From an uncultured virus (IMG/VR IMGVR_UViG_3300013108_000147) (lineage: Duplodnaviria > Heunggongvirae > Uroviricota > Caudoviricetes > Crassvirales): a DNA stretch of 64,000 nucleotides. This document shows positions 1,949-62,236 of this stretch, piece by piece; within the stretch, counting starts at the first letter, position 1, and each line of letters begins with the position of its first letter. The stretch is taken from IMG/VR virus record IMGVR_UViG_3300013108_000147. One strand, 5' to 3'. The notes beneath the pieces are model-generated. The model was not told the origin of the DNA. It saw only the letters and a program-made list of their open reading frames with translations, and did no database searches. Both the position numbers and the translations under genes were made by a program.

Positions 1949-2653
1949 ATGCAGAACACAAATTACGTTATTTACTACAGAGCTAGTACAGAGAAACAAA
2001 GAGATGGTTTAGGATTAGACGCGCAAAAGGCAGCGATAAGCAAATTCTTAAATAACTACGGAGGCACAATCGTAGATATAGTAGAAGAGATTGTGTCAGG
2101 TGGAGCAGACGTAAGAGAAGGTTTTAACCAAGCTTTAAAAGTAGCTAAAGAAACAAGCTCTACTTTATTAGTACACAGAATAGATAGATTATCTAGGTCA
2201 GGATTCATGACCATAGCTTTATTAGAGCAAGAAGGAGTTAACTTCATAGAAGCTGACGCGCCTAATGACTCTAGTTTCTCTAAAAACATTAAGTTCTTAG
2301 TAGCTAAAGAGGAGAAAGAGAAAATCCAAGCTAGGGTTAAAGGAGCTCTATCAGAAATTAAAACTAAGATAGGTCAGAATGGATATCACATCTCTAAAGC
2401 AGGTAATAAGATTACATCTTTAGGCTCTCCTCAAAACTTATCAGAAGTGTCTAGACAAAAGTCAATAGTGTCAAGAAGAAACAAAGCTCTTAACAATATT
2501 AATAATAAGAAGGCTTACTCTGTAGTAGAGTTAATGGAAGGTAAATCTCTAAGAGCTATAGCAACATACCTTAACAATAACGGATTCAAAACATCTAGAG
2601 GTAAGGACTTCAGCGCCTCTCAAGTATCTAACCTACGTAAGCTTTACTCTTAA
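1949..2653 (+). CDS. Serine recombinase (resolvase/invertase catalytic domain plus short C-terminal DNA-binding region)
   Basis: YYRASTEKQ catalytic Ser motif, 'EIVSG', 'HRIDRLSR'; C-terminal 'LRAIATYLNNNGFKTSRG'. Confidence 0.9.
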   Translation: MQNTNYVIYYRASTEKQRDGLGLDAQKAAISKFLNNYGGTIVDIVEEIVSGGADVREGFNQALKVAKETSSTLLVHRIDRLSRSGFMTIALLEQEGVNFIEADAPNDSSFSKNIKFLVAKEEKEKIQARVKGALSEIKTKIGQNGYHISKAGNKITSLGSPQNLSEVSRQKSIVSRRNKALNNINNKKAYSVVELMEGKSLRAIATYLNNNGFKTSRGKDFSASQVSNLRKLYS

Positions 2654-2714: not shown

Positions 2715-3587
2715 ATGGCAGTATTAAAAGCAGGAGCAGCAAGCTCCACATTCAATTTAGATGGTAACGAGTATTCTAAAGGTTTATACGAAACTATCTA
2801 CAGTAACGTAAGTATCTTACCTGACGGAGAGTCAGATGAAAAGGTGCTTCAAGTAGGTCTACGAAACATAAATACAGGCGAGACTATCCAAGAGCCTATA
2901 ATGATTAGGGCTTGGAAAAATGGTAGTAATGTAGCTTACACTACACTAGACGCCTTGATATCAGATTTAAACTCTTTGGCAGGTGTAGGTTCTTCGGGGC
3001 CTTTAGAAGTACCGACATCCTACCCAACAACAGACGCAGCTAAGGCCGGCAAGACCTTTATATATAAAGGTACGCAGTGGGTGTATCTAAATCAAGAAAT
3101 GATTAACGACAGAAATTGGCAAAACATAGCTGCAGTAAGTGTAGGATTCCCTGCTCCACTTGAAGATAGTAGAACAAACTATAAAGTTGTCAGACCAACT
3201 GCATCAGCTTGGAACGTATCGGGAGTAGCAGATTTCGAATTGGCCAATTATAACTACGTAAATGGTACAGGTGGTGACGTAGAATTTGACGCTATAGGTT
3301 ACTCCTCTGTACATTTAATGCAATCATTGTCCGTCAATATAGGTGCAGGTAATACTTTAGTAAAACTTAGAAACGTAGGTCTATGTGCTAATTTAGAAGA
3401 CGTAGGGACAAGTTCCGCCATGTACTTATCGTCCAAAGGTATGAGTGCAGCCACTATAGACGACATATTTACTCAGTTACCTGCAACAACAAAAACAGCG
3501 ACAATTGACGTAAGGTCTAACCCAGGTTCAGCAACTTGCGACGCCTCAATAGCAACAGCGAAAGGGTACACAGTAGTGACAGCTTAA
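2715..3587 (+). CDS. Putative virion accessory protein
   Basis: 290 aa; N-terminus resembles ORF 60-1799. Confidence 0.45.
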   Translation: MAVLKAGAASSTFNLDGNEYSKGLYETIYSNVSILPDGESDEKVLQVGLRNINTGETIQEPIMIRAWKNGSNVAYTTLDALISDLNSLAGVGSSGPLEVPTSYPTTDAAKAGKTFIYKGTQWVYLNQEMINDRNWQNIAAVSVGFPAPLEDSRTNYKVVRPTASAWNVSGVADFELANYNYVNGTGGDVEFDAIGYSSVHLMQSLSVNIGAGNTLVKLRNVGLCANLEDVGTSSAMYLSSKGMSAATIDDIFTQLPATTKTATIDVRSNPGSATCDASIATAKGYTVVTA

Positions 3588-6746: not shown

Positions 6747-7506
6747 AATTAAAGACATAGTTGTAGACAAGCCCGGCTCTAGGAAAGATTTAGTAGTAGG
6801 TTCAGATTTCGACAATTTCGGGGTAACTAGAAACTATGGTTTAGGGGGAATAGCGGACGTTATAAACAGAGCGTCAGGTAAGTCTGTTTTTATATATAAG
6901 TACACGGAAACCTTATCAGAGCTAGACACAAAAAACGCTGTGATGTCATCTGTAAACGGAGATTTAGATTCTGCTACAGTAACATCGTACAGGTTTAGTA
7001 GGATAGATGATAACGGTAATGACTTAAGTGATATAGTTACTATATATGAACCTAATTCAGACGGAATTGTCTTACAGATTACTTCTGTAGAAGACGCATC
7101 TAAGATAGCTGCGTATACTATAGTATCAGCAACTACAACAACAAACTATGTTGAGATTCAAGTACTTAAGTACAGAGACTTAACAACAGCAATTTTTGAA
7201 AGGAATAAAGAGTTTTCTTTATCTTTCGATTATGTAAACAACAACCTTAATGTTACAGAAGCCACTAATACTTCTCAGTTAGTAAATGACGGAGAAAGTG
7301 GTAACCCGTTCATATCGGCCTACACACACTCTCAAGGTTTACCCAACAATGTGTGGACAATAAACCACAACTTAGGCAGAAGGCCTTCGGTTAACGTGGC
7401 AGACTCAGCAGGAACCCTTATGGAAGGGGCAGTCGAGTATATAGATGAAAACAATTTAACAATAACCTTTAATAATGGCTTCTCAGGAGAAGCGCACTTA
7501 AATTAA
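6739..7506 (+). CDS. Putative structural/tail protein
   Basis: N-terminal 'VVGSD...TRNY' motif shared with 11584; C-terminal 'WTINHNLG' module. Confidence 0.55.
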   Translation: MGRIKDIVVDKPGSRKDLVVGSDFDNFGVTRNYGLGGIADVINRASGKSVFIYKYTETLSELDTKNAVMSSVNGDLDSATVTSYRFSRIDDNGNDLSDIVTIYEPNSDGIVLQITSVEDASKIAAYTIVSATTTTNYVEIQVLKYRDLTTAIFERNKEFSLSFDYVNNNLNVTEATNTSQLVNDGESGNPFISAYTHSQGLPNNVWTINHNLGRRPSVNVADSAGTLMEGAVEYIDENNLTITFNNGFSGEAHLN

Positions 7507-7512
7507 TAAATA

Positions 7513-8697
7513 ATGGCATTAAAAAGATTTTTAGTAGATATAGATTTAAACAAGAATCAACTGCTTAACGCAGTATTGCAAAACTTAGCTACACCTCCAT
7601 CTAACCCATCAGAAGCTCAGATGTATTACGATACAGCTGATGACACAGCTTATATATGGGATGGTACACAATGGTTAGATTTAGCTAAATTACAAAACGC
7701 ATCTGAAGTACCTTTTACACCAACAGGTAACACAGTGTCAACTGACGTACAAGCAGCTATAGAAGAGTTACAAACAGAGATAGACACTATTTCAGGTTTT
7801 TCAGGTAACACCAACCTTAGCAACACACCTACAGCTACTCAAGTAACAGTTGAATCAGACACAGGTAATAATACTGTAATAGCAGCAGCTACAAATTCTG
7901 ATGCCGGTGTAATGTCAGCGTCAGACAAATCTAAACTAGACGGTATAGAAGCTTTAGCAGACGTTACAGACTCAACAAATGTAGATGCAGCAGGAGCGGT
8001 AATGAATTCAGATACTTCTACTTCAGCTATGAACTTTGTTATAGACGAGGACGACATGTCATCTAACACTAATACTAAGGTGCCTACACAACAGTCCGTA
8101 AAAGCTTATGTAGATAGTCAAGTTACAGGGTCGTTAGTGTTTATGGGGGACTATAACGCGTCTACTAACACACCTGACTTAGAAAGTGGCTCAGGAGTTT
8201 CTGTAGGTGACACATACGTAGTCACTGTAGCAGGTAACTTTTTCACAGAGGCAGTACAAGTTGGTGATATGGTGATAGCCAAAGAAGCTTCAGCTAACAC
8301 ACTCGCTAAGTGGTCTGTAGTTAATAAGAACATACCTGACATAGTTGACGCATCGACAACATCTAAAGGTATAATAGAGTTGGCTACACAAACAGAGGTT
8401 AATACAGGTACTGATGCTGATAGAGCTGTAACACCTGCAACATTAGCGGGAACACTTGGTGTAACAGGTTCTCTTTCAACAGTATTAACATATACAGAGT
8501 TAATAGGGGACAACTCCTCTACATCAATAGTAGTGACTCACAGTATTGGCAATCAGCATGTTCAGTCTCAAGTATTTGACGCTACTACAGGAGATAAAGT
8601 TATCTGTGAAATAGAAAATACAAGCACTAACACTACAACATTTAAGTTTAACGTAGCCCCAACTACAAATGAACTAAGAGTAGTTATACAAGGATAG
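7513..8697 (+). CDS. Putative tail fibre protein
   Basis: 'DVQAAIEEL', 'GVMSASDKSKLDGIE', 'VPTQQSVKAYVD', 'KGIIELATQTEV...AVTP' fibre repeat motifs. Confidence 0.7.
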   Translation: MALKRFLVDIDLNKNQLLNAVLQNLATPPSNPSEAQMYYDTADDTAYIWDGTQWLDLAKLQNASEVPFTPTGNTVSTDVQAAIEELQTEIDTISGFSGNTNLSNTPTATQVTVESDTGNNTVIAAATNSDAGVMSASDKSKLDGIEALADVTDSTNVDAAGAVMNSDTSTSAMNFVIDEDDMSSNTNTKVPTQQSVKAYVDSQVTGSLVFMGDYNASTNTPDLESGSGVSVGDTYVVTVAGNFFTEAVQVGDMVIAKEASANTLAKWSVVNKNIPDIVDASTTSKGIIELATQTEVNTGTDADRAVTPATLAGTLGVTGSLSTVLTYTELIGDNSSTSIVVTHSIGNQHVQSQVFDATTGDKVICEIENTSTNTTTFKFNVAPTTNELRVVIQG

Positions 8698-13219: not shown

Positions 13220-13450
13220 ATGAAAGGGAGCATAAGAAAAATTATAGTTGGTGACAGCTATAACTTCAACATCAAGTACTTAAAAGGCACAGAATACAGA
13301 GTAGGCCCTAGAAAGTGCACAATTACAGATTTTATTACTAACGAGGACGAGTCAATCGATATCTATGTTACAGATGGTACTTCCGTATTTATTTGGAAGA
13401 CTATCATAAGTAAACCATTAGAGATTGAGTACGACGTAAACTTTGAGTAA
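13220..13450 (+). CDS. Hypothetical phage protein
   Basis: 76 aa, first gene of the packaging operon. Confidence 0.6.
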   Translation: MKGSIRKIIVGDSYNFNIKYLKGTEYRVGPRKCTITDFITNEDESIDIYVTDGTSVFIWKTIISKPLEIEYDVNFE

Positions 13451-13451
13451 T

Positions 13452-14030
13452 ATGAAATCTAGTTACTATTTTATAGTAGAGGTAGAGAAAGATTATAACA
13501 ACTACGAGACTCTACCTAACGGTTTAAAAATTATGACTAATAACTCTATAGAAACTGTAGAGGCTATTAACAGAGTAGGTACTATAATATCAGCACCCAA
13601 AGGCACAATAGCTGACAAAGGGGACAAGCTACTTTTTCACCACAATATATGTAGGAGAGAACACGGATTCAAAGGAGCTAAAAGGCTAAGCCCTTTTCAA
13701 GTAACTAAGAATATCTTCTTTGTACCTATAATGGAATCTTACATGATAGACAAAGGTAATGGTTGGCAATCAGTAGACCCATATGTATTTCTACTACCGA
13801 TAAAAGAAGAACCTAAAGTATTAGCTAATGGCCTAAAGATTGTAGCTAAAGACCACAAAGGTATGAACGAATACTCGGGTATAGTAGCTTACGGAAATAA
13901 AGCTTTAGAGCAACAAGGGATAAAAGAAGGAGATGTAGTAGGTTTTACAGAGTACTCTCAACATGAGTATGAACTTGACGGAAAGATATACTACAGAATG
14001 ACTACTAATGATATAACATGTAAATATTAA
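13452..14030 (+). CDS. GroES-like co-chaperonin (probably two tandem domains)
   Basis: 'GTIISAP...GDKLLFHH' and 'GIVAYGN...IKEGDVVGF...YELDGKIYYRM' repeats. Confidence 0.6.
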   Translation: MKSSYYFIVEVEKDYNNYETLPNGLKIMTNNSIETVEAINRVGTIISAPKGTIADKGDKLLFHHNICRREHGFKGAKRLSPFQVTKNIFFVPIMESYMIDKGNGWQSVDPYVFLLPIKEEPKVLANGLKIVAKDHKGMNEYSGIVAYGNKALEQQGIKEGDVVGFTEYSQHEYELDGKIYYRMTTNDITCKY

Positions 14031-32148: not shown

Positions 32149-35100
32149 ATGAACGAAGAATATTTAAAAGGATTACACGGACACTTAGGGATAACTGACG
32201 ATTACTCAACTTGGGTAAACGCAGTACAAGGAGACGAAGAATATTTAAAAGGACTACACGGACACTTAGGAATAACTGACGATTACCAAACTTGGGCAAG
32301 TGCTGTGTGGGGAAAGACTACAGCCGATTCTATGGAGTCTCGTTTGGATTCGGTGGTACAATTTTCTCAATCGGAATCGGAAGAGACAAATCAGGAGCAA
32401 GAAGTTACTACTTCGGAAGAAACTGAAACATTTGACACAAGTTTCCCTGAGGATATGATATCTCAAAGTAAAACGGAGAATGTTATACCTAGTGGAGATG
32501 GTACGCTTGTAATAGGTGGCGAAGAGATTTCCGTAGAAGACATGGAGATTTCTGAACTATATGACGCGTACAAACAAGCAGGGTACATTTCTCAAGCTGA
32601 CGTTTCTGAAGTAGAGGCTACAATAGAGGCTCAAGCAAAAGGAGATTTTTCTACAGTAGAAACAATAAAAGCTTACGCAAATACACTTATGAAGTATGGG
32701 CCCGCATCAGGTATGCACAGCCCTATATTTGATTATATGGATAGAGACGAAGCCTTGTTTGCTAGACAACAGAAAAATAAGGTTGATTTTCTTAACGCTT
32801 TACCTGAAGATAAGGTAACAGAGTTAAAAGAATACGCTTTCAACAGAACTGAGCAAATATCAGCTGATAACTTAAATGTTTTTGCTCAGAATAAACTTCT
32901 AGAAAGTAAGATTAAGACAGTTGTATCTGATTTAGAGCAGATGTCTTTATCTATGGAAAAGATAAAAGAAGATGGCGGTGTCTTACCTAAAGAAGCTGCT
33001 GATGAGTATCTAAAGGCTTATAAAGAAGCTGTATCTTTACAAACTACTTATAAAGAAAATACTAATATACTAGAGTCTAATACAGAGGATTTAGGAGAGA
33101 CTTGGGAAGAATTAGACCTTCTTAAAAGAAACTACGGCGGACTTGACTATTATCAAGAGAAGCTGAGATTAAGCGCTGCGCATATTGCAGGTGGACTTGT
33201 TCAACTTCAAGCTATGGCAGGAAACCCTGCGACCTTAACACCTGACGTTGAGCTTATGTATACAATGCAGAAGTATAGAGAGCAAGTGGCTGCAGACGAG
33301 GATATGTTAAGGCCTGCTATGTCAGTAGAGCAGATAAACGGCTTAGAGGACTTTGGTATGTGGGCAGGTGAGCAAATAGCTAACCAATTACCTATATTAT
33401 TGACACTAACAGCTACAGGCGGTACATCAGGGTTAGTTTTACTTTCTTCTTCTACAGCAGGTAGTAAGGCAGGTGAGATGACAGACTCTAATGTGAAAGG
33501 TGAAACAAACTTTTCAGCGGGAAATATACTTTTAACTAGTATAGGTCACGGAGCAGCCGAATACTTAAGCGAGAGAGTTAGTTTAGGTATCCTTAGTAAA
33601 GGTAACAGAGTTATAAAGTCTGCGTTAAAAGGTAAGAAACCTGGAGCTAAAATACCTACACCTGAGTATTCTAGTATAAGAACAGGCGTATCTAATTACG
33701 CAAAGAAAACTTGGGGAGCAGCTTGGCAAGAAGGTAGCTCAGAGTGGGCTAACACTTTAGCTCAGAATATGTTAGATATCGCAGCGGGAGCAGAAGATGT
33801 AAACCCTTTTGACGGAGCTTTAGATGCATTTGCATCGGGCGCGTTTATGGGTAAAGCTATGCAAACAGTTCCCTCTGTTGTAGGTATGGCTATAAGACCA
33901 TTCACTAGAAAGGAAATATCTAAAAAGATTAAATCTAATCTAGAAGATTTAGAGGCTTTAGCTTATATGTTAGAGACTCAAGATTTAAGCGAAGCGTCTC
34001 AGAACATTGTTAAAAGAAAGATGCAAAATATCATGACTCAGTCTGAGTCTATGATAAATGAAACTTTAGGAGAAACGTCTAAAGTAGGTTCTAAAGGTTT
34101 ACAGAGAATATTAGAGATAGAGAAAAGAGCAGGTATATTAAGAAAGTCTGTAAAAGAAATAGAAAATTCTGATTTACCTACAGAAACTAAAACTCAAATT
34201 AAAGCTGAGGCTAAGGCTGAAGTAGACGCTTTAAGAAAAGAGAAAGAAAATATATTAGATGGGAGTAAACAAGATGGGGAGAAATCCCGAGTACAACAAG
34301 AACTCGAAGCAGCAATACAAGGAGGAGTCGAAGTTGAGCAAGGAGGAAAAGGAACTGCAGAAGTTCAAGGAGAAAATGCTGAAGCACGAGATACTGATAC
34401 AGACTCTGAAGGAGTGCGGACAGATAAGCAGGGAGATACGAAACTCGATGACGGAAAAGCAACACAAACAACTGCAGCAAAACCTGAAACTGTAGATGTA
34501 GAACCTCTAAAAAAGAGAAAGAGACAATTAGAAGAGGAGCTAGTTGATATAGAGGACGACGCTACTGCAGAAAAGATGGAGGCTGAAATAGAGCAGTTAA
34601 ATACTCAAATATCTGAAGCTAGTAAAGTTGCTACTCCAGTAGTAGACAATTCGGCTAAGATACAAGCTAAGGACGACGCTACTAATCAAGATGTTACTGA
34701 TGAAGTATCAAATATCCAAACTAAGTTGCAGGAGGCGGGTAAACAAAAAGAGCTTGATACTTTAGGGGACAAGTATTTCAAAATTTTAGAAGACCAAGCC
34801 AAGAAGGAAGAATCAGGACAGGAGTTAGATAGATACGACAAAGCTAGAAAAACTAGAGCGTTTAATAAGATTGCTAAGTTAGGCAAAGAGTTAGGTATAG
34901 ACCCTATGTATTACTTAGAGAACAAGGGCGCGCTACCTAAAGAATCTGCACCTAAGAAAGCAGCACCTAAGAAAGCAGCACCTAAGAAAGCAGCACCTAA
35001 GAAAGCAGCGCCTAAGAAACCTGCGGCTGAAAAAATAATCGAGTCTTTTGAAAAACATGTTAAAAGTAAAGGAGTTACTTGGAAATCTATGTTTGCTATG

Positions 35101-43538: not shown

Positions 43539-45101
43539 TTAGTTTCTAGCTACAACTGCGTCAGTGGTCAAAAACGCACCTGCAACAGATACAGCGTTAG
43601 TTAGCGCAGATTTTGTAACCTTCTTAGGGTCAACTATACCTGCTTCAATCATGTCTACAAGTTCTCCTGTATTAACATCGATACCTTCTGTAGGTTTAGC
43701 AAAACTCATTAAGTCCGTGCTATCTATACCCGCATTAGCTAATATCTGCTCAAACGGAGCGCTAAGAGACTCTAACAACATAACGTAACCTTTAACGAAA
43801 GATTCGCTATTTTTAGTAGGGACTTCTCTTAGTAAGTTAAGAGAAATATCTAGTAGTGTTACACCACCACCGGCAACGATACCTTCTTCAAGGGCCGCTC
43901 TAGTAGCGTTGATACCATCTTCAATTCTATCTCTCTTCTCGATAAGCTCGCTATCTGATGAAGCACCGATATGAAGAGTTGCAACTCCTCCGCTGATTCT
44001 AGATAAACGCTCTTGCAAGTCTTTACGCTCTATGTCGTTGTTCTCAGCTTTAATTCTAACTTTAAGCTCTTCGATAGTTTCTGTCAAGTTGCCTTGATTA
44101 CCGATAAGAATACTGCTACTTACATCAGCTATAAACTTATCCACTCTGCCTAAGGCTTCAGCTCCTAAAGAAACACCTGTCTCAGACGCTACAATCTTAG
44201 CTCCTGATAGCTTAGCTACGTCTGATAGAATGTCAGAGTTAATTTTAAGAATCTGAGGAGTTCTCACTACACAAATCTTACCTCGTATAGCTCCGCTATC
44301 TACGTTACTACGTATTGTAGAGAATACAAAAGGGTCGATGTCGTCACAAATAATCACTAAAGAGTTATGAGGATTGTCCGCGCTCCATACTGCGTTAAAC
44401 ATTTCTACTAAGTTATCTCCTCTCTCTATCTTACCTTTGTAAAGTAATAAGTAAGGATTCTCAAGGGCACACTCATATTTGATAGGGTCTGTAACAAAGA
44501 TAGGGTCTATAAAACCATTATCTAATTGTATACCTTGACCTACTTCGATAGTAGTCTCCCTAGTGTCAGATGGCTTAGTGATAACTAAACCGTGCTCACC
44601 AATCTTAGAGAAAGCTTCTGCTATTAAGTTACCTAAATCTTTATCTCCGTTAACAGATATAGTGGTAACATCTGAAAGGTTATCATTAGAAACTTGTATA
44701 GCTCTTGAGTCTAACTCAGCTAAAACATCCTCTAAAGCTGCGTCCATACCTCGTTTGAGTTGTATGGCTGAGGCTCCTTCTTCTAATGCTTGCAACCCTG
44801 CGTTGAAAATACTCTGAACAAGTACAGAGGCTGTAGTTGTGCCGTCACCTGCTTTAGTGTTTGTTCTACCTGAAGCCTCCTTAACTATAGATGCCCCAAT
44901 CTCCTTGAAACGACCTACAGGGTCGATACTTCTTGCAATAGATACTCCGTCCTTAGTGGTGATGTATCCGCCCTCTCCTACAGGTATGATTACTGTCCTA
45001 CCTTCGGCTCCCATAGAAACTTTCACTGTGTCAGCTACTTCGTCTACTCCTTTTTTTAATTCTTGTCTCGCGTCGTCAGCGAATTTAATTACTGTTTTCA
45101 T
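43539..45101 (-). CDS. groEL: Chaperonin GroEL
   Basis: 'TKDGVSIA', 'AGDGTTTA', 'EEGIVAGGG', 'GIVDPKKVT'. Confidence 0.95.
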   Translation of the reverse strand: MKTVIKFADDARQELKKGVDEVADTVKVSMGAEGRTVIIPVGEGGYITTKDGVSIARSIDPVGRFKEIGASIVKEASGRTNTKAGDGTTTASVLVQSIFNAGLQALEEGASAIQLKRGMDAALEDVLAELDSRAIQVSNDNLSDVTTISVNGDKDLGNLIAEAFSKIGEHGLVITKPSDTRETTIEVGQGIQLDNGFIDPIFVTDPIKYECALENPYLLLYKGKIERGDNLVEMFNAVWSADNPHNSLVIICDDIDPFVFSTIRSNVDSGAIRGKICVVRTPQILKINSDILSDVAKLSGAKIVASETGVSLGAEALGRVDKFIADVSSSILIGNQGNLTETIEELKVRIKAENNDIERKDLQERLSRISGGVATLHIGASSDSELIEKRDRIEDGINATRAALEEGIVAGGGVTLLDISLNLLREVPTKNSESFVKGYVMLLESLSAPFEQILANAGIDSTDLMSFAKPTEGIDVNTGELVDMIEAGIVDPKKVTKSALTNAVSVAGAFLTTDAVVARN

Positions 45102-45103
45102 AC

Positions 45104-45373
45104 TTAATCTAAAATTGCTATTATATTACCTGCTTGAATTATGAAATGGTCTTCGCCATTATGTTTACATTTCCCCGGCTCTCTAGGCTCTAAGTAGTGG
45201 ACAAAATCGCCTGGTTCAGTCACATCTACTTTCTCTCCCACTAAAACAACTTCCGCTACGGGAAGGCTTAGTCCGTCATCTTTAATCTCTAGACCTCCTT
45301 CGGTCTTAATGGTGCCTGCTAATCTTTTTAGCAACACTCTTCCGTTAACTACTTTGGTTACGTTCTTACTCAT
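45104..45373 (-). CDS. groES: Co-chaperonin GroES
   Basis: 'RVLLKR...KTEGGL...AEVVLVG...PGD.V...IIAIL', directly upstream of groEL. Confidence 0.85.
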   Translation of the reverse strand: MSKNVTKVVNGRVLLKRLAGTIKTEGGLEIKDDGLSLPVAEVVLVGEKVDVTEPGDFVHYLEPREPGKCKHNGEDHFIIQAGNIIAILD

Positions 45374-57197: not shown

Positions 57198-58073
57198 TTA
57201 ATTATATTTTTTGTTATACCAAGCTAACTTGTTTAAATCTAGCTTAGCGTTATTAGACTTCATGCTTCCTCCGTTTATAAACAGTTTGATTGCTTTTTCT
57301 TTGTTTATAATGTTATTGGATTTGTTGTCTTCCTTAGGTGACCAACCTAGTCTAAGTATGTAGTTGAGTAGTGCGTCATTACTGATGTTGCTTAAGTCTA
57401 TCTCATCGGAATCTCTCTTAGACAACTTCTTTCCTGAACTGTGGCATACTAAACCTACGTGTGTAAATTTAGGTAAATCTTTTTCAATTACAAAACTTTC
57501 GTTCAATAATTTCCAAATTAATGTTTGTTTATACGTATTAGATATGTGGTCTACTCCGCGAACTATCCACGTTACATCTTCATCGTAGTCGTCTACTGTA
57601 GATGCAAAGTTGTATGCCGGTGAGCCGTCAGACTTCATTATAACTTGTTCTGAGGCGTACCCTGCAATTTGGTCGTTAGCTTTCTTTAAACCTGTCAAAG
57701 TATCTGTCCAACTACAAGCGTCAACTTTAGTGGTTCCGTCGTAAAGTTCGTAACCTTTATTAAGTCTTATACATCCGTCATCTTCGATAGCCATACCTAA
57801 TTCTACAAGTTGATTAGCTACTTCTCTATATCTGCCAAACCTCTCAGACTGCTTGAAAGTCTTGTCGTAGTCTAGACCAAGCCGTGATAGTGAATCAAAT
57901 ATGGGTTGTATAAGTTCCTCTCTACTACGTGTTAAGTCAGTGTCATCAACACGGACTATAAACTTAGAGTTTGTGTCTTGCTTAGATATAAGCCAATTGT
58001 GGTAAGCTGTTCTAAGTGTACCTATGTGTAACATACCAGTAGGTGATGGTGCTATTCTAACTATTTCTGCCAT
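57198..58073 (-). CDS. Glutamyl-tRNA synthetase-like protein, catalytic domain only
   Basis: 'RIAPSPTGMLHIG', 'RVDDTD..R', 'QSER', 'YNFASTVDD', 'VRGVDH', 'KKLSKR', 'LGWS'; 291 aa, no anticodon-binding domain. Confidence 0.9.
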   Translation of the reverse strand: MAEIVRIAPSPTGMLHIGTLRTAYHNWLISKQDTNSKFIVRVDDTDLTRSREELIQPIFDSLSRLGLDYDKTFKQSERFGRYREVANQLVELGMAIEDDGCIRLNKGYELYDGTTKVDACSWTDTLTGLKKANDQIAGYASEQVIMKSDGSPAYNFASTVDDYDEDVTWIVRGVDHISNTYKQTLIWKLLNESFVIEKDLPKFTHVGLVCHSSGKKLSKRDSDEIDLSNISNDALLNYILRLGWSPKEDNKSNNIINKEKAIKLFINGGSMKSNNAKLDLNKLAWYNKKYN

Positions 58074-58455: not shown

Positions 58456-58540
58456 TATTTCTGTTTTATTTCTTCAAAATGTATTTTATGGTAGCGACAT
58501 TCGTGTCGTTAGCATCGGCTTCAATTTTTATACAGAGCCG

Positions 58541-58738
58541 TTACCACCCATAAGAGTTGTACATTTTTACTATATCCTCTCTTGTTATAGTTGTGTCTTC
58601 CATAAATTCACCATAACCAAACATTTTGTGTTCATAGTGAAATTTTTGTGACTTAGATAATTTATTCCACCACTTAATAGCTTTATTACGTGTGGTAACA
58701 CCACCTAAATTTAATTTATTCTCTTCGTTCATAAACAT
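58541..58738 (-). CDS. Cassette ORF, hypothetical
   Basis: Stop TAA lies in the TAAC core at 58540-58543; starts within the hairpin. Confidence 0.55.
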   Translation of the reverse strand: MFMNEENKLNLGGVTTRNKAIKWWNKLSKSQKFHYEHKMFGYGEFMEDTTITREDIVKMYNSYGW

Positions 58739-58759
58739 AATTTTAGCTTAACCGTTGTA
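58692..58759. repeat. attC-like site 1
   Basis: GTGGTAAC...ctaaatttaatttat / ataaacataattttag...cGTTGTA. Confidence 0.65.
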
Positions 58760-58764
58760 AGTAA

Positions 58765-59058
58765 TTAAAGGTTCATTTCTTTTATTTTCATATAAACCAT
58801 CATTAGTTCAAACAAACTATAACTTGTTTTCTTATAAAGGTATATATTTTCTCCTTGTACGCTTACATACTTTTCACACCAATCATCAAAGGTCAGTTCC
58901 TTTTTGCTCTTTAACTCCGTACAACAATGTGTATAATTAATAGCTTCTATATCGTTCATTAAACAAGCTACTGTTTTAATTGTTTTTTTGTCTGCATCAG
59001 CTTTTTCTATGTAAAAATCTATTACTCTTTGCAATATCTGTTTCTTATAATTATCCAT
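58765..59058 (-). CDS. Cassette ORF, hypothetical
   Basis: 97 aa; starts in the loop of site 2 and reads through the arm (INYTHCC). Confidence 0.55.
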   Translation of the reverse strand: MDNYKKQILQRVIDFYIEKADADKKTIKTVACLMNDIEAINYTHCCTELKSKKELTFDDWCEKYVSVQGENIYLYKKTSYSLFELMMVYMKIKEMNL

Positions 59059-59116
59059 TTTTATTATTTTTAGTTATTATTCAAGCTACTAATCATACAC
59101 TCGTCCGTTATGCACC
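58920..59116. repeat. attC-like site 2 (long loop)
   Basis: TACAAC; arm gtgtataattaatagctt (58929-46) pairs 16/18 with aagctactaatcatacac (59083-100); cGTTATGC. Confidence 0.75.
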
Positions 59117-59296
59117 ATTACGCAAACTCTTACCTTGCTCTTTCGCCAAAGTTTTTAGTGTTTCCTTTTTTATTAAAATACCCTTACAAGGCATTGTTCT
59201 GCAAATTGTTTCACAGCCTTCTCTTTCCAATAAATCTAAACCGCATTTAGTGCAAGGTATCCTACCAAGTTCATTGTAAGTATCTACTACATCCAT
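59108..59296 (-). CDS. Cassette ORF, Cys-rich hypothetical
   Basis: CxxC motifs; stop in the TAAC core. Confidence 0.5.
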   Translation of the reverse strand: MDVVDTYNELGRIPCTKCGLDLLEREGCETICRTMPCKGILIKKETLKTLAKEQGKSLRNGA

Positions 59297-59317
59297 TTTT
59301 TACAATTTAAAATTAAC

Positions 59318-59365
59318 GGTGCATAACACCATATAAAATTCATTTCGTTCCTCCCGTTAGCCACA
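59318..59365. repeat. attC-like site 3 (right arm apparently missing)
   Basis: GGTGCATAAC-accatataaaattcatttcgttcctccc-GTTAGCC. Confidence 0.55.
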
Positions 59366-59566
59366 ATTAACAGGTTGCTCTTTTGCCATTGTAGCGTTTT
59401 CTAAAATACTTATAGCTTGGTTTAGTTCTGAGATAGCATCTAAATCAGCATCAGTATCGGGGCAAGGTGCATCTATCTTACAGTTTCTTTTTATAAAACT
59501 ATTTTCTATAAACGTATCCTTTGCTTTTTCTCGTTGTTCTTTTAGTTGTTGAATAATTCTTTCCAT
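59357..59566 (-). CDS. Cassette ORF, hypothetical
   Basis: Likely start MERIIQ at 59566; an in-frame upstream ATG lies in the site-4 loop; stop in the TAAC core. Confidence 0.5.
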   Translation of the reverse strand: MERIIQQLKEQREKAKDTFIENSFIKRNCKIDAPCPDTDADLDAISELNQAISILENATMAKEQPVNCG

Positions 59567-59573
59567 AATTAAA

Positions 59574-59680
59574 TTAACTGTGGCTAACACAAAAGATAGT
59601 GAATAGCCGATTAAACATTTGTTTTTCATAGCCAAGTTTAAGGTGTCGGCTACTCACCATATTCAAGCACGTTGTAGTTA
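59574..59680. repeat. attC-like site 4
   Basis: TGTGGCTAAC; atagtgaatagccga (59596-610) pairs 13/15 with tcggctactcaccat (59646-60); cGTTGTAG. Confidence 0.75.
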
Positions 59681-59890
59681 ATGTTTTTTACGAAACTTTC
59701 GCCATTTAATTTTAATCCATTCTACTAACACAATCACACCAAAGGCAAGTATTAATATCCCAAATATTGATAAACCTATTACGTCTTTCCAATTCCAAAA
59801 CATTGTTGTATCGTTACCGCAAGAGGTAAAAAACACTAACAACAACATTGTATATAGTGCATAGCTTGTTTTTGTTCTTAATCGTTTCAT
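59678..59890 (-). CDS. Cassette ORF, putative lipoprotein/membrane protein
   Basis: 'LLLVFFTSC' lipobox-like plus a TM helix; starts in the site-5 loop. Confidence 0.55.
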   Translation of the reverse strand: MKRLRTKTSYALYTMLLLVFFTSCGNDTTMFWNWKDVIGLSIFGILILAFGVIVLVEWIKIKWRKFRKKH

Positions 59891-59973
59891 TTTGCTTTTT
59901 ATTTAAGTTATTTATAAATCATTATTTCGTGCTATAAGGTCGCTACGACACCATACACTAAGCGTTGTGTGTA
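59837..59973. repeat. attC-like site 5
   Basis: TAACAACAAC; gtatatagtgcatagc / gctacgacaccatacac; cGTTGTGT. Confidence 0.7.
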
Positions 59974-59976
59974 ATG

Positions 59977-60363
59977 CTATACTTGCTTGTTAATTTCCTT
60001 AAAACACAATATACACTCAGGGTATTGTCTTCTACTATTAAAACTATAAAAACCGCCTTCCATATATTGTTTCCACAATTCACTTTTTCTTTTAATTTCT
60101 AAAACATCTACCAATAAAAATTTATTAGGATTTAATTTTACAAAATCCCAAGATTTTTTATCTAAAAATCCTTTAAAATCACCACTTTGTTTTAATGAGT
60201 TGTAATAATTACCTTCATTAATAGTGATAAAAGTTCCTCCGTATTCTCTTGTAAAAGTGTTAAGTTTTACTTTGTTTCCTTTTGATATTACAACTTGTTT
60301 TAAATCTTCTTTTGTCAGTTTTTCAGTATAAAATCTTTTTCTAAGTTTTGAAAGTTCACTCAT
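59977..60363 (-). CDS. Cassette ORF, hypothetical
   Basis: 128 aa, very AT-rich, entirely inside one unit. Confidence 0.55.
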   Translation of the reverse strand: MSELSKLRKRFYTEKLTKEDLKQVVISKGNKVKLNTFTREYGGTFITINEGNYYNSLKQSGDFKGFLDKKSWDFVKLNPNKFLLVDVLEIKRKSELWKQYMEGGFYSFNSRRQYPECILCFKEINKQV

Positions 60364-60396
60364 TATTTCTATATATCATTAATTAATAATCCGCAC

Positions 60397-60463
60397 TACA
60401 CACAACAATATGTATAGTGCATTTTCGTGCCTCAAACGACACCATACACTCAAAGTTAGCCAC
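60397..60463. repeat. attC-like site 6 (short)
   Basis: TACACACAAC-aatatgtatagtgcattt-tcgtgcctc-aaacgacaccatacactcaaa-GTTAGCC. Confidence 0.75.
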
Positions 60464-60728
60464 AATTAAATGCCTTTAACGTCTCTTCTATCATTGTTTG
60501 CCCTACGTAAGTATGTGTACTTTCATTAAATCTGTCTGCCAAATCATTTAACAGTTCACGTTGTTGGCTAACATCAGATAAAACAAATTCTATGTCATTG
60601 TCATTTATCCGATGGTCTGACCAAGTAATCGCACTTTGAAACAAATCATTCCAATCTGTTGTGCTCTTGTCTATTGTTACATCACTGCCTTCAATTTGTA
60701 GGTATATTTTTTTAGGTATATTTTTCAT
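60456..60728 (-). CDS. Cassette ORF, hypothetical
   Basis: Likely start MKNIPK at 60728 in the site-7 loop; reads through the arm (LSDVSQQR); stop in the TAAC core. Confidence 0.55.
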   Translation of the reverse strand: MKNIPKKIYLQIEGSDVTIDKSTTDWNDLFQSAITWSDHRINDNDIEFVLSDVSQQRELLNDLADRFNESTHTYVGQTMIEETLKAFNCG

Positions 60729-60764
60729 AATCAAACTTGTTTTATCTGTGATACGTTGTATCAC
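60565..60764. repeat. attC-like site 7 (long loop)
   Basis: TGGCTAAC; cagataaaacaaatt (60575-89) pairs 14/15 with aacttgttttatctg (60734-48); cGTTGTAT. Confidence 0.75.
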
Positions 60765-60766
60765 AT

Positions 60767-61000
60767 TTATGGTTGTTTAAATACATTGTCTGCCCACTTA
60801 ATATATTTCAAAGCATAATCAACACCTGTTAATATATAAGCTAAGTTTAGAGGTACTGCCAACACAATAAACACGATTGATAAGACAAGGTTTCCTACTG
60901 CATATCTTAAACGTGCTACAACACCGTATAAACTTAATTTAGGTTTCTTTTCTAATCCTAAACTTTTAATCATATATTCTGCGTCTATTTCTTTTTTCAT
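60767..61000 (-). CDS. Cassette ORF, membrane protein
   Basis: TM helix; crosses the half-site GTGCTACAAC at 60913-22 (LYGVVAR). Confidence 0.55.
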   Translation of the reverse strand: MKKEIDAEYMIKSLGLEKKPKLSLYGVVARLRYAVGNLVLSIVFIVLAVPLNLAYILTGVDYALKYIKWADNVFKQP

Positions 61001-61020
61001 AATTTCTGTTATTTAATTCA

Positions 61021-61434
61021 TTACACATCAATCAACTCGAATGATTTAGCATTTCTTGTTTTATCGTTCCAATATTTTTTGTTTAGTTCGTAAGCATCAG
61101 ACATTCTCAAACCCATAGTTTCAGCAAGTATGTAGAATGGTTTAGTTAAGTAGTTAAATGCTAATGTCATTTCTGTTGCATCTCCTTCAAAAATTACTTC
61201 TTTTTTGTCGTTTAAAATTTGTTTCATATCACTTCGTTGGCTAACAATAGATACACTCAAATTTTTAACCTTAGCTTCGAGCCATTCTACGTATTCATCA
61301 CAAAAACCATCTTCATAAGGTGTTTGTCCTGCGTAATCCTGTCTAACAGCCATCACACCATATCCGTTTTCTTTTTTAAACTTTTCTCTTAAATCCATAT
61401 TTACTTCTTTTTTGTCGTTTAAAATTTGTTTCAT
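61021..61434 (-). CDS. Hypothetical protein with duplicated N-terminus
   Basis: MKQILNDKKEV occurs twice. Confidence 0.5.
   Translation of the reverse strand: MKQILNDKKEVNMDLREKFKKENGYGVMAVRQDYAGQTPYEDGFCDEYVEWLEAKVKNLSVSIVSQRSDMKQILNDKKEVIFEGDATEMTLAFNYLTKPFYILAETMGLRMSDAYELNKKYWNDKTRNAKSFELIDV
61194..61434. repeat. 34-bp perfect direct repeat (61194-61227 and 61401-61434)
   Basis: ttacttcttttttgtcgtttaaaatttgtttcat x2. Confidence 0.9.
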
Positions 61435-61885: not shown

Positions 61886-62236
61886 TTAAACATTAAAACG
61901 ATTATATTCTTGAATAAATTCTACTACTGCCTTATATGTATCTTCTATAGTCCATATGTTTTCGTACCCCTCTGTAAGTTTTGAGAATGTTTCATCAAAT
62001 GGTGTGTTATAGTAATCATCCCCTATCTTTTGGACTACTGGCATCAGCCAATCCCAAGAGGTGTGGTATTTTAAATCACTAATTCTTTTAACGGCATAAG
62101 TACCACTTGGCAAACCCTCACTTCCTTTTACGCAAAGGATTCTTGATTCTCCTATTGTTTGTGGCAGGTTAATTAAATTTGGTACACTTGATGGTATACC
62201 ACTCATAAATTCTGCAATAAGTTTATTGTATTCCAT
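61886..62236 (-). CDS. Hypothetical phage protein
   Basis: 'NKLIAEFM...LKYHTSWDWLMPVV.KI...YKAVVEFI' motif, recalled from Bacteroidota phages. Confidence 0.6.
   Translation of the reverse strand: MEYNKLIAEFMSGIPSSVPNLINLPQTIGESRILCVKGSEGLPSGTYAVKRISDLKYHTSWDWLMPVVQKIGDDYYNTPFDETFSKLTEGYENIWTIEDTYKAVVEFIQEYNRFNV

Follow-up and report, generated by a model that had tools for sequence, protein, structure and literature searches.

A recombinase-less array of probable mobile gene cassettes in a Crassvirales phage and a related folded site in Bacteroidota

The stretch of 64,000 nucleotides analyzed here (the window) belongs to an uncultured virus of the Crassvirales (IMG/VR IMGVR_UViG_3300013108_000147). 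From 41.5 kb to 64 kb all genes are located on the minus strand and, within this part, positions 58540-60935 hold eight small open reading frames (ORFs) of 62-128 aa, which are arranged in eight consecutive units, one ORF per unit. Each unit extends from one GTT to the next, starts with a unit-specific sequence and carries the reverse complement of this sequence, ending in AAC, further downstream (Table 1). We assessed this region as a candidate array of integron-like gene cassettes. The positions of the eight GTT/AAC pairs, the seven unit lengths and the presence of a single small ORF in each unit are as described in an earlier note on this DNA (the original prediction), which was made from the sequence alone. 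Comparison with PHROGs provided no function for 11 of the 13 small ORFs.

Table 1. Units, folding sites and border elements of the array. Pairing was counted from the GTT/AAC anchors; the perfect pairing of a unit's ends is also the match of its end to its own start. All ORFs are on the minus strand.
Feature	Position	Strand	GTT/AAC	GTT-to-GTT span (bp)	Pairing of ends, perfect / one mismatch allowed (nt)	Match of end to next start (nt)	ORF	Remarks
Cassette array, eight GTT-to-GTT units	58540..60935	+ (top strand by analogy with bacterial arrays)						
Unit 1	58540..58753	+	58540/58692	214	8 / 10	3	58541-58738, 65 aa	ends GTTACCAC / GTGGTAAC; ORF stop codon inside GTTA; right border is the unit-2 deletion joint seen in metagenome contigs
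Unit 2	58754..59106	+	58754/58920	353	6 / 8	3	58765-59058, 97 aa	weak 6-nt repeat
Unit 3	59107..59355	+	59107/59318	249	10 / 14	4	59108-59296, 62 aa	ends GTTATGCACC / GGTGCATAAC, 10/10 (14 with one mismatch); then truncated site 59328-59355, which does not fold
Unit 4	59356..59670	+	59356/59574	315	10 / 15	3	59357-59569, 70 aa	ends 14/15 complementary
Unit 5	59671..59963	+	59671/59826-46	293	5 / 10	5	59678-59890, 70 aa	arms 19/21 complementary; alternative lipoprotein-like start at 59848
Unit 6	59964..60454	+	59964/60397	491	10 / 14	3	59977-60363, 128 aa	ends 10/10 (14 with one mismatch)
Unit 7	60455..60754	+	60455/60565	300	8 / 8	3	60456-60728	ends GTTAGCCA / TGGCTAAC, 8 nt; first 15 nt identical to first 15 nt of unit 4
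Unit 8	60755..60935	+	60755/60913		6 / 10		60767-61000, 77 aa (unit lies inside ORF)	ends 9/10 complementary; ORF residues 1-27 match phrog_30810
Site A	58456..58546							low-coordinate end of the array; other hairpin type, core in opposite orientation
Site C	58923..59109	-						arms 17/19 complementary by eye; weak R1 match 58919-58979 (E 3.7)
Site E	59583..59678	-						AAC, long imperfect hairpin, GTT; z -3.5, 0/200 shuffles as good
Site F	59841..59970	-						two halves parted by a ~100-nt tip (nhmmer)
Site G	60400..60461	-						full member of the R1 family; 55.4 bits, E 1.4e-14
Unit 7/8 border stem	60748..60764							perfect 7-bp stem, 3-nt loop

Inverted repeats anchored at GTT are enriched in this region. 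Between 58400 and 61100, 8, 6 and 3 such repeats were counted within 600 nt at minimal lengths of 8, 9 and 10 nt, respectively. Dinucleotide shuffles yielded means of 1.24, 0.33 and 0.10 at the same thresholds, and the observed counts were reached in none of 500 shuffles. This is the control on self-matching ends that had been proposed along with the original prediction, and its outcome is in favor of the latter. The tile comprising the array obtained the top GTT-anchored repeat score among 46 tiles of the window, and GTT was the best of all 64 trinucleotide anchors when repeats of at least 10 nt were considered. Five of the eight perfect pairs of at least 8 nt correspond to pairs already listed in the original prediction, one resides inside the pair-5 arms and two are additional (58584/58823 and 60199/60294), which is about the chance expectation. 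The end of a unit matched its own start better than the start of the following unit in six of seven comparisons, the remaining one being a tie. Thus, the claim that each start is complementary to the end of its own unit rather than to the next start was confirmed. Unit-specific terminal inverted repeats of the GTT..AAC type are present in the bacterial arrays G006 and G004 and in the phage arrays L032, L047 and L272 as well. The latter three contain 5, 6 and 15 GTT..AAC pairs as compared to 0.76, 0.65 and 1.19 expected pairs, numbers that were not equaled in any of 200 shuffles in each case. Two chance-type extra pairs and several short pairs (6-8 nt) could be taken as signs of chance or of a composition artefact of AT-rich DNA. 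This explanation is refuted by the shuffles, by the fact that the region represents the maximum of the window, and by homologous sites in other phages and at at least 122 loci in bacterial genomes, which are described below.

The intergenic stretches of the array share a core on the minus strand that is composed of AAC, 5-8 nt, a left arm of the GTGTATGGTG type, a variable middle, a right arm of the CACTATACA type, 2-4 nt and GTT. A scan of viral contigs with a 14-nt motif yielded 121 loci. About 20 of them are true site homologues as judged by eye, in which ..AAC always precedes the motif by 5-8 nt, while the remaining matches reflect chance or a conserved protein-coding motif. When a 22-base gapped pattern was scanned over one genome per prokaryote species, at least 122 loci were obtained. 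Among the loci listed, most are from Bacteroidota (Flavobacteriales, Cytophagales, Bacteroidales and Saprospiraceae) and a few from allied phyla (Balneolaceae, Melioribacteraceae, KSB1 and Neomarinimicrobiota), and they share a near-invariant element of ~60 nt bounded by AAC and GTT. From 71 site sequences we built a covariance model, subsequently designated R1. The site follows the plan AAC, ~5-nt spacer, 10-bp stem, variable tip, return stem, 3-4-nt spacer and GTT, and 96.3% of the cells in the alignment of the 71 sequences are paired according to the assigned structure. The stem contains two invariant G.T pairs and bulged T's, and compensated changes occur in the variable tip. As a consequence of the two G.T pairs, one strand folds better than the other. 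The attC sites of integrons consist of R'' (..AAC) and R' (GTT..) boxes, an unpaired spacer, L boxes with extrahelical bases and a variable tip. The R1 alignment exhibits this architecture with respect to boxes, spacer, extrahelical bases and tip; R and L boxes as well as the G|TTRRRY core are named by Qi et al. 2023 (PMC9892861).

In 55 of the 57 listed bacterial loci, the gene on the GTT side is oriented opposite to the model strand and its stop codon is located at the edge of the site. These neighbors include restriction functions (Bpu10I, Mrr and MvaI endonucleases, a type I R subunit, Eco57I/MmeI enzymes) and further defence functions (Thoeris TIR, SMC-like ATPases, Schlafen helicases, PLD, HEPN, reverse transcriptase), and other accessory genes also lie directly 5' of bacterial R1 sites. 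Imperfectly palindromic elements located 3' of genes and pairing asymmetrically on the two strands (G.T versus A.C) would also be expected of small non-autonomous transposable elements or REP-like palindromes that are moved by an HUH enzyme of the IS200/IS605 or RAYT type. We consider such an origin very improbable: R1 lacks the high copy number of REP/RAYT or IS200/IS605 elements (1-12 model matches per genome in 27 genomes), the flanks are unit-specific inverted repeats rather than target duplications, and the polar association described below is with a tyrosine recombinase. In several bacterial copies, group II introns are found directly after ...CACATTGT, as confirmed by Pfam and Rfam. At loci L133, L159, L161 and L171 the introns reside at ...CACATTGT| on the strand antisense to the cargo gene, and the reverse transcriptase/maturase, the D1-D4 and the D5-6 RNA domains were all detected. 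One bacterial genome (G021:C1, 720394-731567) carries six R1 sites in a single orientation within 11 kb; no recombinase of the family introduced below was found nearby, making this a bacterial array without recombinase.

Seven stretches at the borders of the units and of the array were folded and compared to shuffles, four of them on both strands. The original prediction had placed a hairpin in every gap between AAC and GTT, which holds for four of the seven stretches (59583-59678, 58456-58546, 60729-60770 and 60400-60461): these either fold or match the site model. Besides site G, the R1 scan of the window returned no match with E <1. Site E overlaps a stretch (59574-59673) with 82% identity to an unannotated gap of Cellulophaga phage phi18:3 (blastn), and the homologous phi18:3 stretch is matched by R1 with an E-value of 7.6e-4. 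Between the arms of site C lie the ribosome-binding region of ORF 58765-59058 and ~37 codons from its start; the left arm of this site recurs in Polaribacter phage P12002L and the corresponding unit recurs in L272. The two halves of site F were detected by nhmmer at 59938-59966 (E 4.4e-5) and 59843-59865 (E 0.019), and ORF 59678-59890 has its start codon and ribosome-binding region in the tip between them. The long-range stem of site F is present in the minimum-energy fold, which is no better than those of shuffles. Site A folds with z-scores of -4.5 on the plus and -2.4 on the minus strand, and its 48-nt part 58486-58533 shows 92% identity to a stretch between genes of Cellulophaga phage phi46:3 (blastn). 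The border of units 7 and 8 (60729-60770) folds with a z-score of -2.9, and the flank of its stem resembles the 3' end of P12002L attC2 as published. Rfam revealed no credible family and no attC-type match between 56000 and 64000, all five hits having E-values >4. On the minus strand of phi46:3 (L005), a hairpin of ~70 nt is located upstream of the homologue of 58486-58533. It opens with GTT and 6 further nt, the reverse complement of which, followed by AAC, closes it; it contains no ORF and looks like an empty unit.

According to the original prediction, arrays of this kind were not a described feature of lytic-type phages. This claim has to be dropped, as Qi et al. 2023 (PMC9892861) reported 17 attC clusters in phages, among them the virulent Polaribacter phage P12002L, and attachment-site arrays in lytic phages are therefore already known. 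In comparisons of the window to cultured phages by blastn only short, site-sized matches appeared. One of them, 60920-61019, comprises 100 nt with 89% identity to P12002L gene 0042, the likeness ending at a minus-strand GTT. R1 matches P12002L attC1 (16.2 bits, E 0.01) and detects at least two further sites in this phage, at 6907-6959 and 8221-8285 (L258). Published attC1 and attC2, the additional R1 sites and the stretch homologous to the window form one leftward array. Hence, the P12002L cluster of attC sites lacking an integrase (CALIN) resembles the window in being a leftward array of small genes, in the 100 nt in common and in an attC1 matched by R1. As far as its available sections go, the published account differs in treating the two sites as classical attC, and it names no cognate recombinase, no Bacteroidota-wide site family and no reversed gene orientation.

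The bacterial R1 sites are associated with a recombinase in a polar manner. Among the listed matches carrying the exact site, 27 genomes were chosen, from which 27 full-length members of one tyrosine recombinase family were considered. Fourteen of these recombinases are followed by 1-8 R1 sites within 40 kb downstream, always with the opposite strand label, while R1 sites upstream or in the other polarity were seen for none of the 27. Altogether, 30 of 100 R1 sites lie in recombinase-headed arrays. In G006, the GTT of the first cassette follows the recombinase stop codon by 55 nt, and this cassette ends with a 10-nt reverse complement of its own start, succeeded by the site. A 9-kb block encoding a type I restriction-modification system is bounded in the same way in G004. 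The same association is seen in viruses: among 80 loci encoding Xer-like recombinases there, 17 carry R1 matches, 31 in all, and each of the 31 is located upstream of the recombinase on the recombinase strand. Thus, the recombinase sits at the same end relative to site polarity in viruses as in bacteria, with the genes flipped. L272 provides an example, with a window-like array that runs up to a recombinase of 267 aa. Among its units is a homologue of window unit 2 with the same ends, and the array further includes a site that is close to the published P12002L attC1, has a compensated stem change and is followed by a methyltransferase.

The recombinases score 216-228 bits with NF040815 (cut-off 220), named 'site-specific tyrosine recombinase/integron integrase' at NCBI, and 194-205 bits with the IntI model TIGR02249 (cut-off 265). 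They align to XerA (5hxy) in one stretch and to IntI4 (2a3v) in two. Since the IntI-specific insertion is lacking, the enzyme does not strictly qualify as an integron integrase, and its sequence characterizes it as Xer/XerA-like, so that the IntI-like enzyme assumed in the original prediction should be replaced by an Xer-type candidate. This also bears on the possibility that the region is a classical CALIN, i.e. that it consists of ordinary attC sites made and used by the canonical IntI of the host. AAC/GTT boxes, spacers and bulges do conform to the attC plan. Qi et al. 2023 (PMC9892861) used HattCI and IntegronFinder to predict attC sites in the homologous array of P12002L, and in their E. 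coli assay attC2 of this phage was recombined with attI1 by IntI1. However, the R1-like attC1 of the same phage gave no verified recombinants with IntI1 in that study, canonical IntI exceeds the cut-off in only one of the 27 R1 genomes, where it is encoded far from the R1 sites, and the array-head recombinase stays below the IntI cut-off as detailed above. As the ORFs of the phage are moreover all antisense to site polarity, we regard a classical CALIN as improbable.

No tyrosine recombinase was found among the 76 ORFs of the window. The statement that the window lacks an integrase is correct in this regard, and a serine recombinase is encoded at 1949-2650. The search beyond the window that had been suggested remained without tyrosine recombinase in the 7.3 kb upstream (obtained from contig G001 of the same virus, which ends at window position ~47451, short of the array) and was successful at related arrays, as reported above. 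As to the serine recombinase, the 234-aa ORF at 1949-2650 (+) matches the Resolvase domain (E 3.8e-20) and the first third only of the 'Recombinase' domain, inside which it stops; a 290-aa ORF without Pfam match (2715-3587, +) follows 60 nt later. Together, they may represent a large serine integrase that has been split or has decayed, in a phage that looks lytic in other respects.

The ORFs of the window are encoded on the strand of the site model, whereas the bacterial neighbors lie on the opposite strand. If the plus strand is taken as the top strand by analogy with bacteria, every gene of the window is antisense to the array, and each site is consequently located upstream of its own gene. 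In several units the site even extends over the ribosome-binding region and initial codons of the gene, as detailed for sites C and F. By this analogy, the phage cassettes appear as mirror images of the bacterial ones. Sites enclosing a gene start could join one conserved protein front end to different back ends.

Evidence for mobility was obtained from assembled contigs and unitigs of four marine metagenome runs (X1-X4), all belonging to one study; the window itself may stem from two of these runs. Unitigs in X2, X3 and X4 join 58751 to 59105, whereby exactly unit 2 (353 nt) is removed. The joint comprises five ambiguous letters, CCGTT being present on both sides. The deletion form reached depths of 6.6 (X2), 2.6 (X3) and 2.1 (X4) next to ~15, 6-7 and 5.6 for the full form, corresponding to about 27-30% of local depth; the joint was absent from the X1 contigs. 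Unit 2 is thus subject to a presence/absence polymorphism within the phage population. The contigs of all four runs break at site borders, and the depth of site G is 3.5-8x that of the phage (X1: 177 vs ~22). Other contigs diverge from the window at 59310, 59350-59355, 59979 and 60383, and in some the right-hand half of a full site immediately precedes the unit-4 GTT (59355/59356). A joint from 59979 to 60383, together with loose ends, shows other cargo in the frame of unit 6; further joints with short sides connect 59110 to 60547, 60468 to 60549 and 62078 to 62148.

Exchange of cargo is also indicated by comparison to other phages. The ends of unit 6 (16 nt and ~24 nt) are identical in the window, L032 and L047, where they surround unrelated ORFs of 128, 57 and ~40-60 aa, respectively, and the hairpin beyond the far end of this frame differs among the three. 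Likewise, the flank beyond AAC differs in all nine viral loci carrying a full site. When unit 6 is compared to a unit of L272, a 5-nt block is changed at both ends, at four positions each, with pairing kept. Concerning the location of the borders at G|TT, the unit-2 joint lies in CCGTT and divergence occurs at 59355/59356, while the conserved block at site G passes the other GTT. No close relative was found in the viral contigs with the glutamyl-tRNA synthetase-like flank protein as query, and the 128-aa cargo ORF produced only two 19-residue matches there.

The main rival explanation holds that the sites are regulatory hairpins, i.e. terminators, RNA-stabilising or -processing elements or promoter-plus-stem-loop units, which are shuffled by homologous recombination over repeats of ~40-60 nt without participation of a dedicated recombinase. 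Such hairpins would be expected between co-directional genes, as is the case in phages and bacteria, and the strand with G.U-compatible pairs is indeed the mRNA strand in the phage. The conserved blocks extend beyond GTT, assemblies branch and show depth spikes at the sites, implying that many genomes share them and thus provide homology for exchange, and the phage is devoid of a recombinase for the array. However, this model leaves unexplained why a unit starts with the reverse complement of its own end and why both ends change jointly, and it provides no reason for the strict polarity to a tyrosine recombinase (14/27 vs 0/27; 31/31). Moreover, the opposite site-gene orientations in bacteria and phages are poorly compatible with a single transcriptional role, no T-run follows the hairpin, and the deletion joint maps to a 5-nt repeat at the predicted border and not to the long shared repeats. 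We consider this explanation unlikely, albeit the most serious of the alternatives. A known case of this type are the promoter-early stem-loops of T4-type phages described by Arbiol and colleagues (2010), reportedly direct repeats that consist of a promoter and hairpin unit and recombine by homology. Small accessory ORFs, a plastic phage region and repeated stem-loops thought to shuffle are common to both systems. A core motif recurs in direct orientation among the sites of the window. In contrast to the direct repeats of T4-type cassettes, the units of the window have unit-specific inverted ends and relatives with a dedicated recombinase.

We conclude that the region probably represents about eight mobile cassettes of an integron-like system that is common to Bacteroidota chromosomes and phages, without a recombinase of its own. 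As the phage lacks a recombinase for its array, the latter would be the counterpart of a CALIN. On the plus strand, a cassette would have the form GTT plus X ... X' plus AAC, followed by the folding site. An Xer-like tyrosine recombinase acting in trans, encoded by the host or by a second phage infecting the same cell, would recombine two folded, presumably single-stranded sites at or next to G|TT, and the cassette would leave or enter as a circle. Excision or entry at G|TT would account for the start of a unit pairing with its own end rather than with that of its neighbor. The notion of phage-borne mobile cassettes served by a tyrosine recombinase in trans, as put forward in the original prediction, is thereby supported by the variant lacking unit 2, by identical ends around different genes, by paired changes at both ends and by polar arrays beside tyrosine recombinases in bacteria and viral contigs. 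A more far-reaching proposal, on which our own judgment is evenly divided, is that a second gene-capture system, independent of IntI and built from a simple Xer/XerA-like recombinase and a phylum-wide folded site of ~60 nt, is common to Bacteroidota and the phages of this phylum. Its cassettes would carry defence genes in chromosomes and, in mirror image, small accessory genes in phages, the window containing a recombinase-less array with one polymorphic cassette.

Several observations weigh against this interpretation. Enrichment of GTT..AAC pairs is not significant in P12002L and phi18:3, as 56 and 15 of 200 shuffles, respectively, equaled the observed counts, and the inverted repeats of units 2, 7 and 8 are weak (6-8 nt perfect). 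Three of the seven folded stretches (59322-59362, 59841-59970 and 60915-61024) did not surpass their shuffles in folding, and the same is true of site G in spite of its model score (z only -1.0). As most of the stem was prescribed by the scan pattern, R1 shows limited covariation. The conserved block at site G reaches ~24 nt beyond the GTT of the minus strand and the AAC-side spacer varies more than the stem, so that the cut point is not readable from comparisons. The shorter side of the unit-2 joint comprises 25 letters, and microhomology of 5 nt could yield this deletion without any recombinase. Neither a circle nor a backward joint was present in the contigs, which cannot show rare forms. 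Finally, 13 of the 27 recombinases have no R1 site nearby, 70 of 100 sites are located away from any recombinase, and the upstream DNA included, ~71 kb of known phage DNA are free of a tyrosine recombinase.

How does this arrangement relate to known systems? As in integrons and CALINs, single-gene units are parted by imperfect hairpins, bounded by ...AAC and GTT..., and have a start that is complementary to their own end. The bacterial R1 arrays further share with integrons the tyrosine recombinase at one end and the defence-rich cargo, and stop codons overlapping the ...TAAC box as well as group II introns at TTGT|T are further common traits. Integrons differ in that their recombinase contains the IntI insertion, whereas the enzyme found here is closest to XerA. 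The complementary ends comprise 10-21 nt here and 7 nt there; a single site sequence of ~60 nt is conserved throughout the phylum; bacterial cassettes can be multi-gene, as in G004; and phage genes are antisense to site polarity, with some tips containing the gene start. An integron in the strict sense possesses an IntI with an extra domain in the catalytic fold and promoterless ORFs, each followed by its own attC site, in sense to the array. The present system has no such enzyme, and the eight ORFs are on the model strand. The definition of a CALIN, at least two attC-type sites with no integrase nearby, applies loosely, as its formal version rests on IntegronFinder; besides site G, which the model detects, the count includes sites C, E and F, with C and F reaching the models weakly. 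Of the hallmarks of an Xer-type array, the window contains the R1 site and the unit-specific terminal inverted repeats of the GTT..AAC type and lacks the recombinase at the polar end.

Genes bounded by Xer-type sites on an element without its own recombinase are likewise a feature of pdif/Xer modules. The pdif sites of Acinetobacter plasmids are said, following Blackwell and Hall, to be duplex XerC/XerD sites of 28 bp in alternating orientation, whereas the sites of the present type are folding palindromes of ~60 nt in a single orientation. Group IIC-attC introns, reportedly studied by Leon and Roy and by Quiroga, are a further point of comparison. Insertion directly after the site at ...TTGT| and on the strand antisense to cargo is common to them and the introns in R1 arrays, the difference being that the target is not a classical attC. 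An association of group IIC introns with integrons is documented in PMC7923331, and integrons as such have been reported from Bacteroidota (Ghaly et al. 2021). In the literature searched, subscription journals excluded, there was no Xer-type integron-like system in Bacteroidota and no description of such a site, nor were there mirrored phage cassettes or sites enclosing gene starts.

If the above interpretation applies, gene capture of the integron type is not tied to IntI, and surveys requiring the IntI domain miss these platforms. The arrays would constitute a shared exchange route, used for defence genes by the hosts and plausibly for counter-defence or takeover genes by the phages. As recombinase and site are both simple, the system would lend itself well to testing whether integrons arose from Xer recombination. 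The mosaic early region of the phage would be explained and positions of gene gain and loss could be predicted.

Downstream of unit 8, a direct repeat of 41 nt (61187-61227 and 61394-61434, 93% identical) duplicates a start codon together with the first 11 codons. By virtue of this duplicated gene start, ORF 61021-61434 resembles two units read through without a stop in between, and a motif common to 60556-80 and 61229-53 is located, in the latter case, just upstream of the inner start of this ORF. The cassette array may extend past 60935.

Two other readings of the sites were rejected. Hairpin promoters of the N4-type virion RNA polymerase were suggested by a 3083-aa ORF and by hairpins with 3-nt loops; they were discarded because the sites also occur in siphoviruses and bacterial chromosomes. 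The -7 promoter box of Bacteroidota matches the sites only inexactly. At the start of the 3083-aa ORF, two near-identical stretches of ~39 nt (32152-32190 and 32233-32271, minus strand) lie 81 nt apart, and R1 matches them weakly (E 2.5 and 2.7).

Upstream of the window, a region of ~1.5 kb (L257; G001:C1 2305-3826) contains no ORF of at least 50 aa and no tRNA gene, and tRNA genes are absent from the entire upstream 7.3 kb. Directly beside the array, 57198-58073 (-) encodes a 291-aa class I glutamyl/glutaminyl-tRNA synthetase catalytic domain that, like glutamyl-Q tRNA(Asp) synthetase, lacks the anticodon-binding part. The phage further encodes a Cpn60 (E 1e-52) and Cpn10 chaperonin pair and a second Cpn10-like domain in the structural module (43539-45373, minus strand, and 13443-14030, plus strand); this module also comprises crAss-type muzzle and SU10-adaptor domains.

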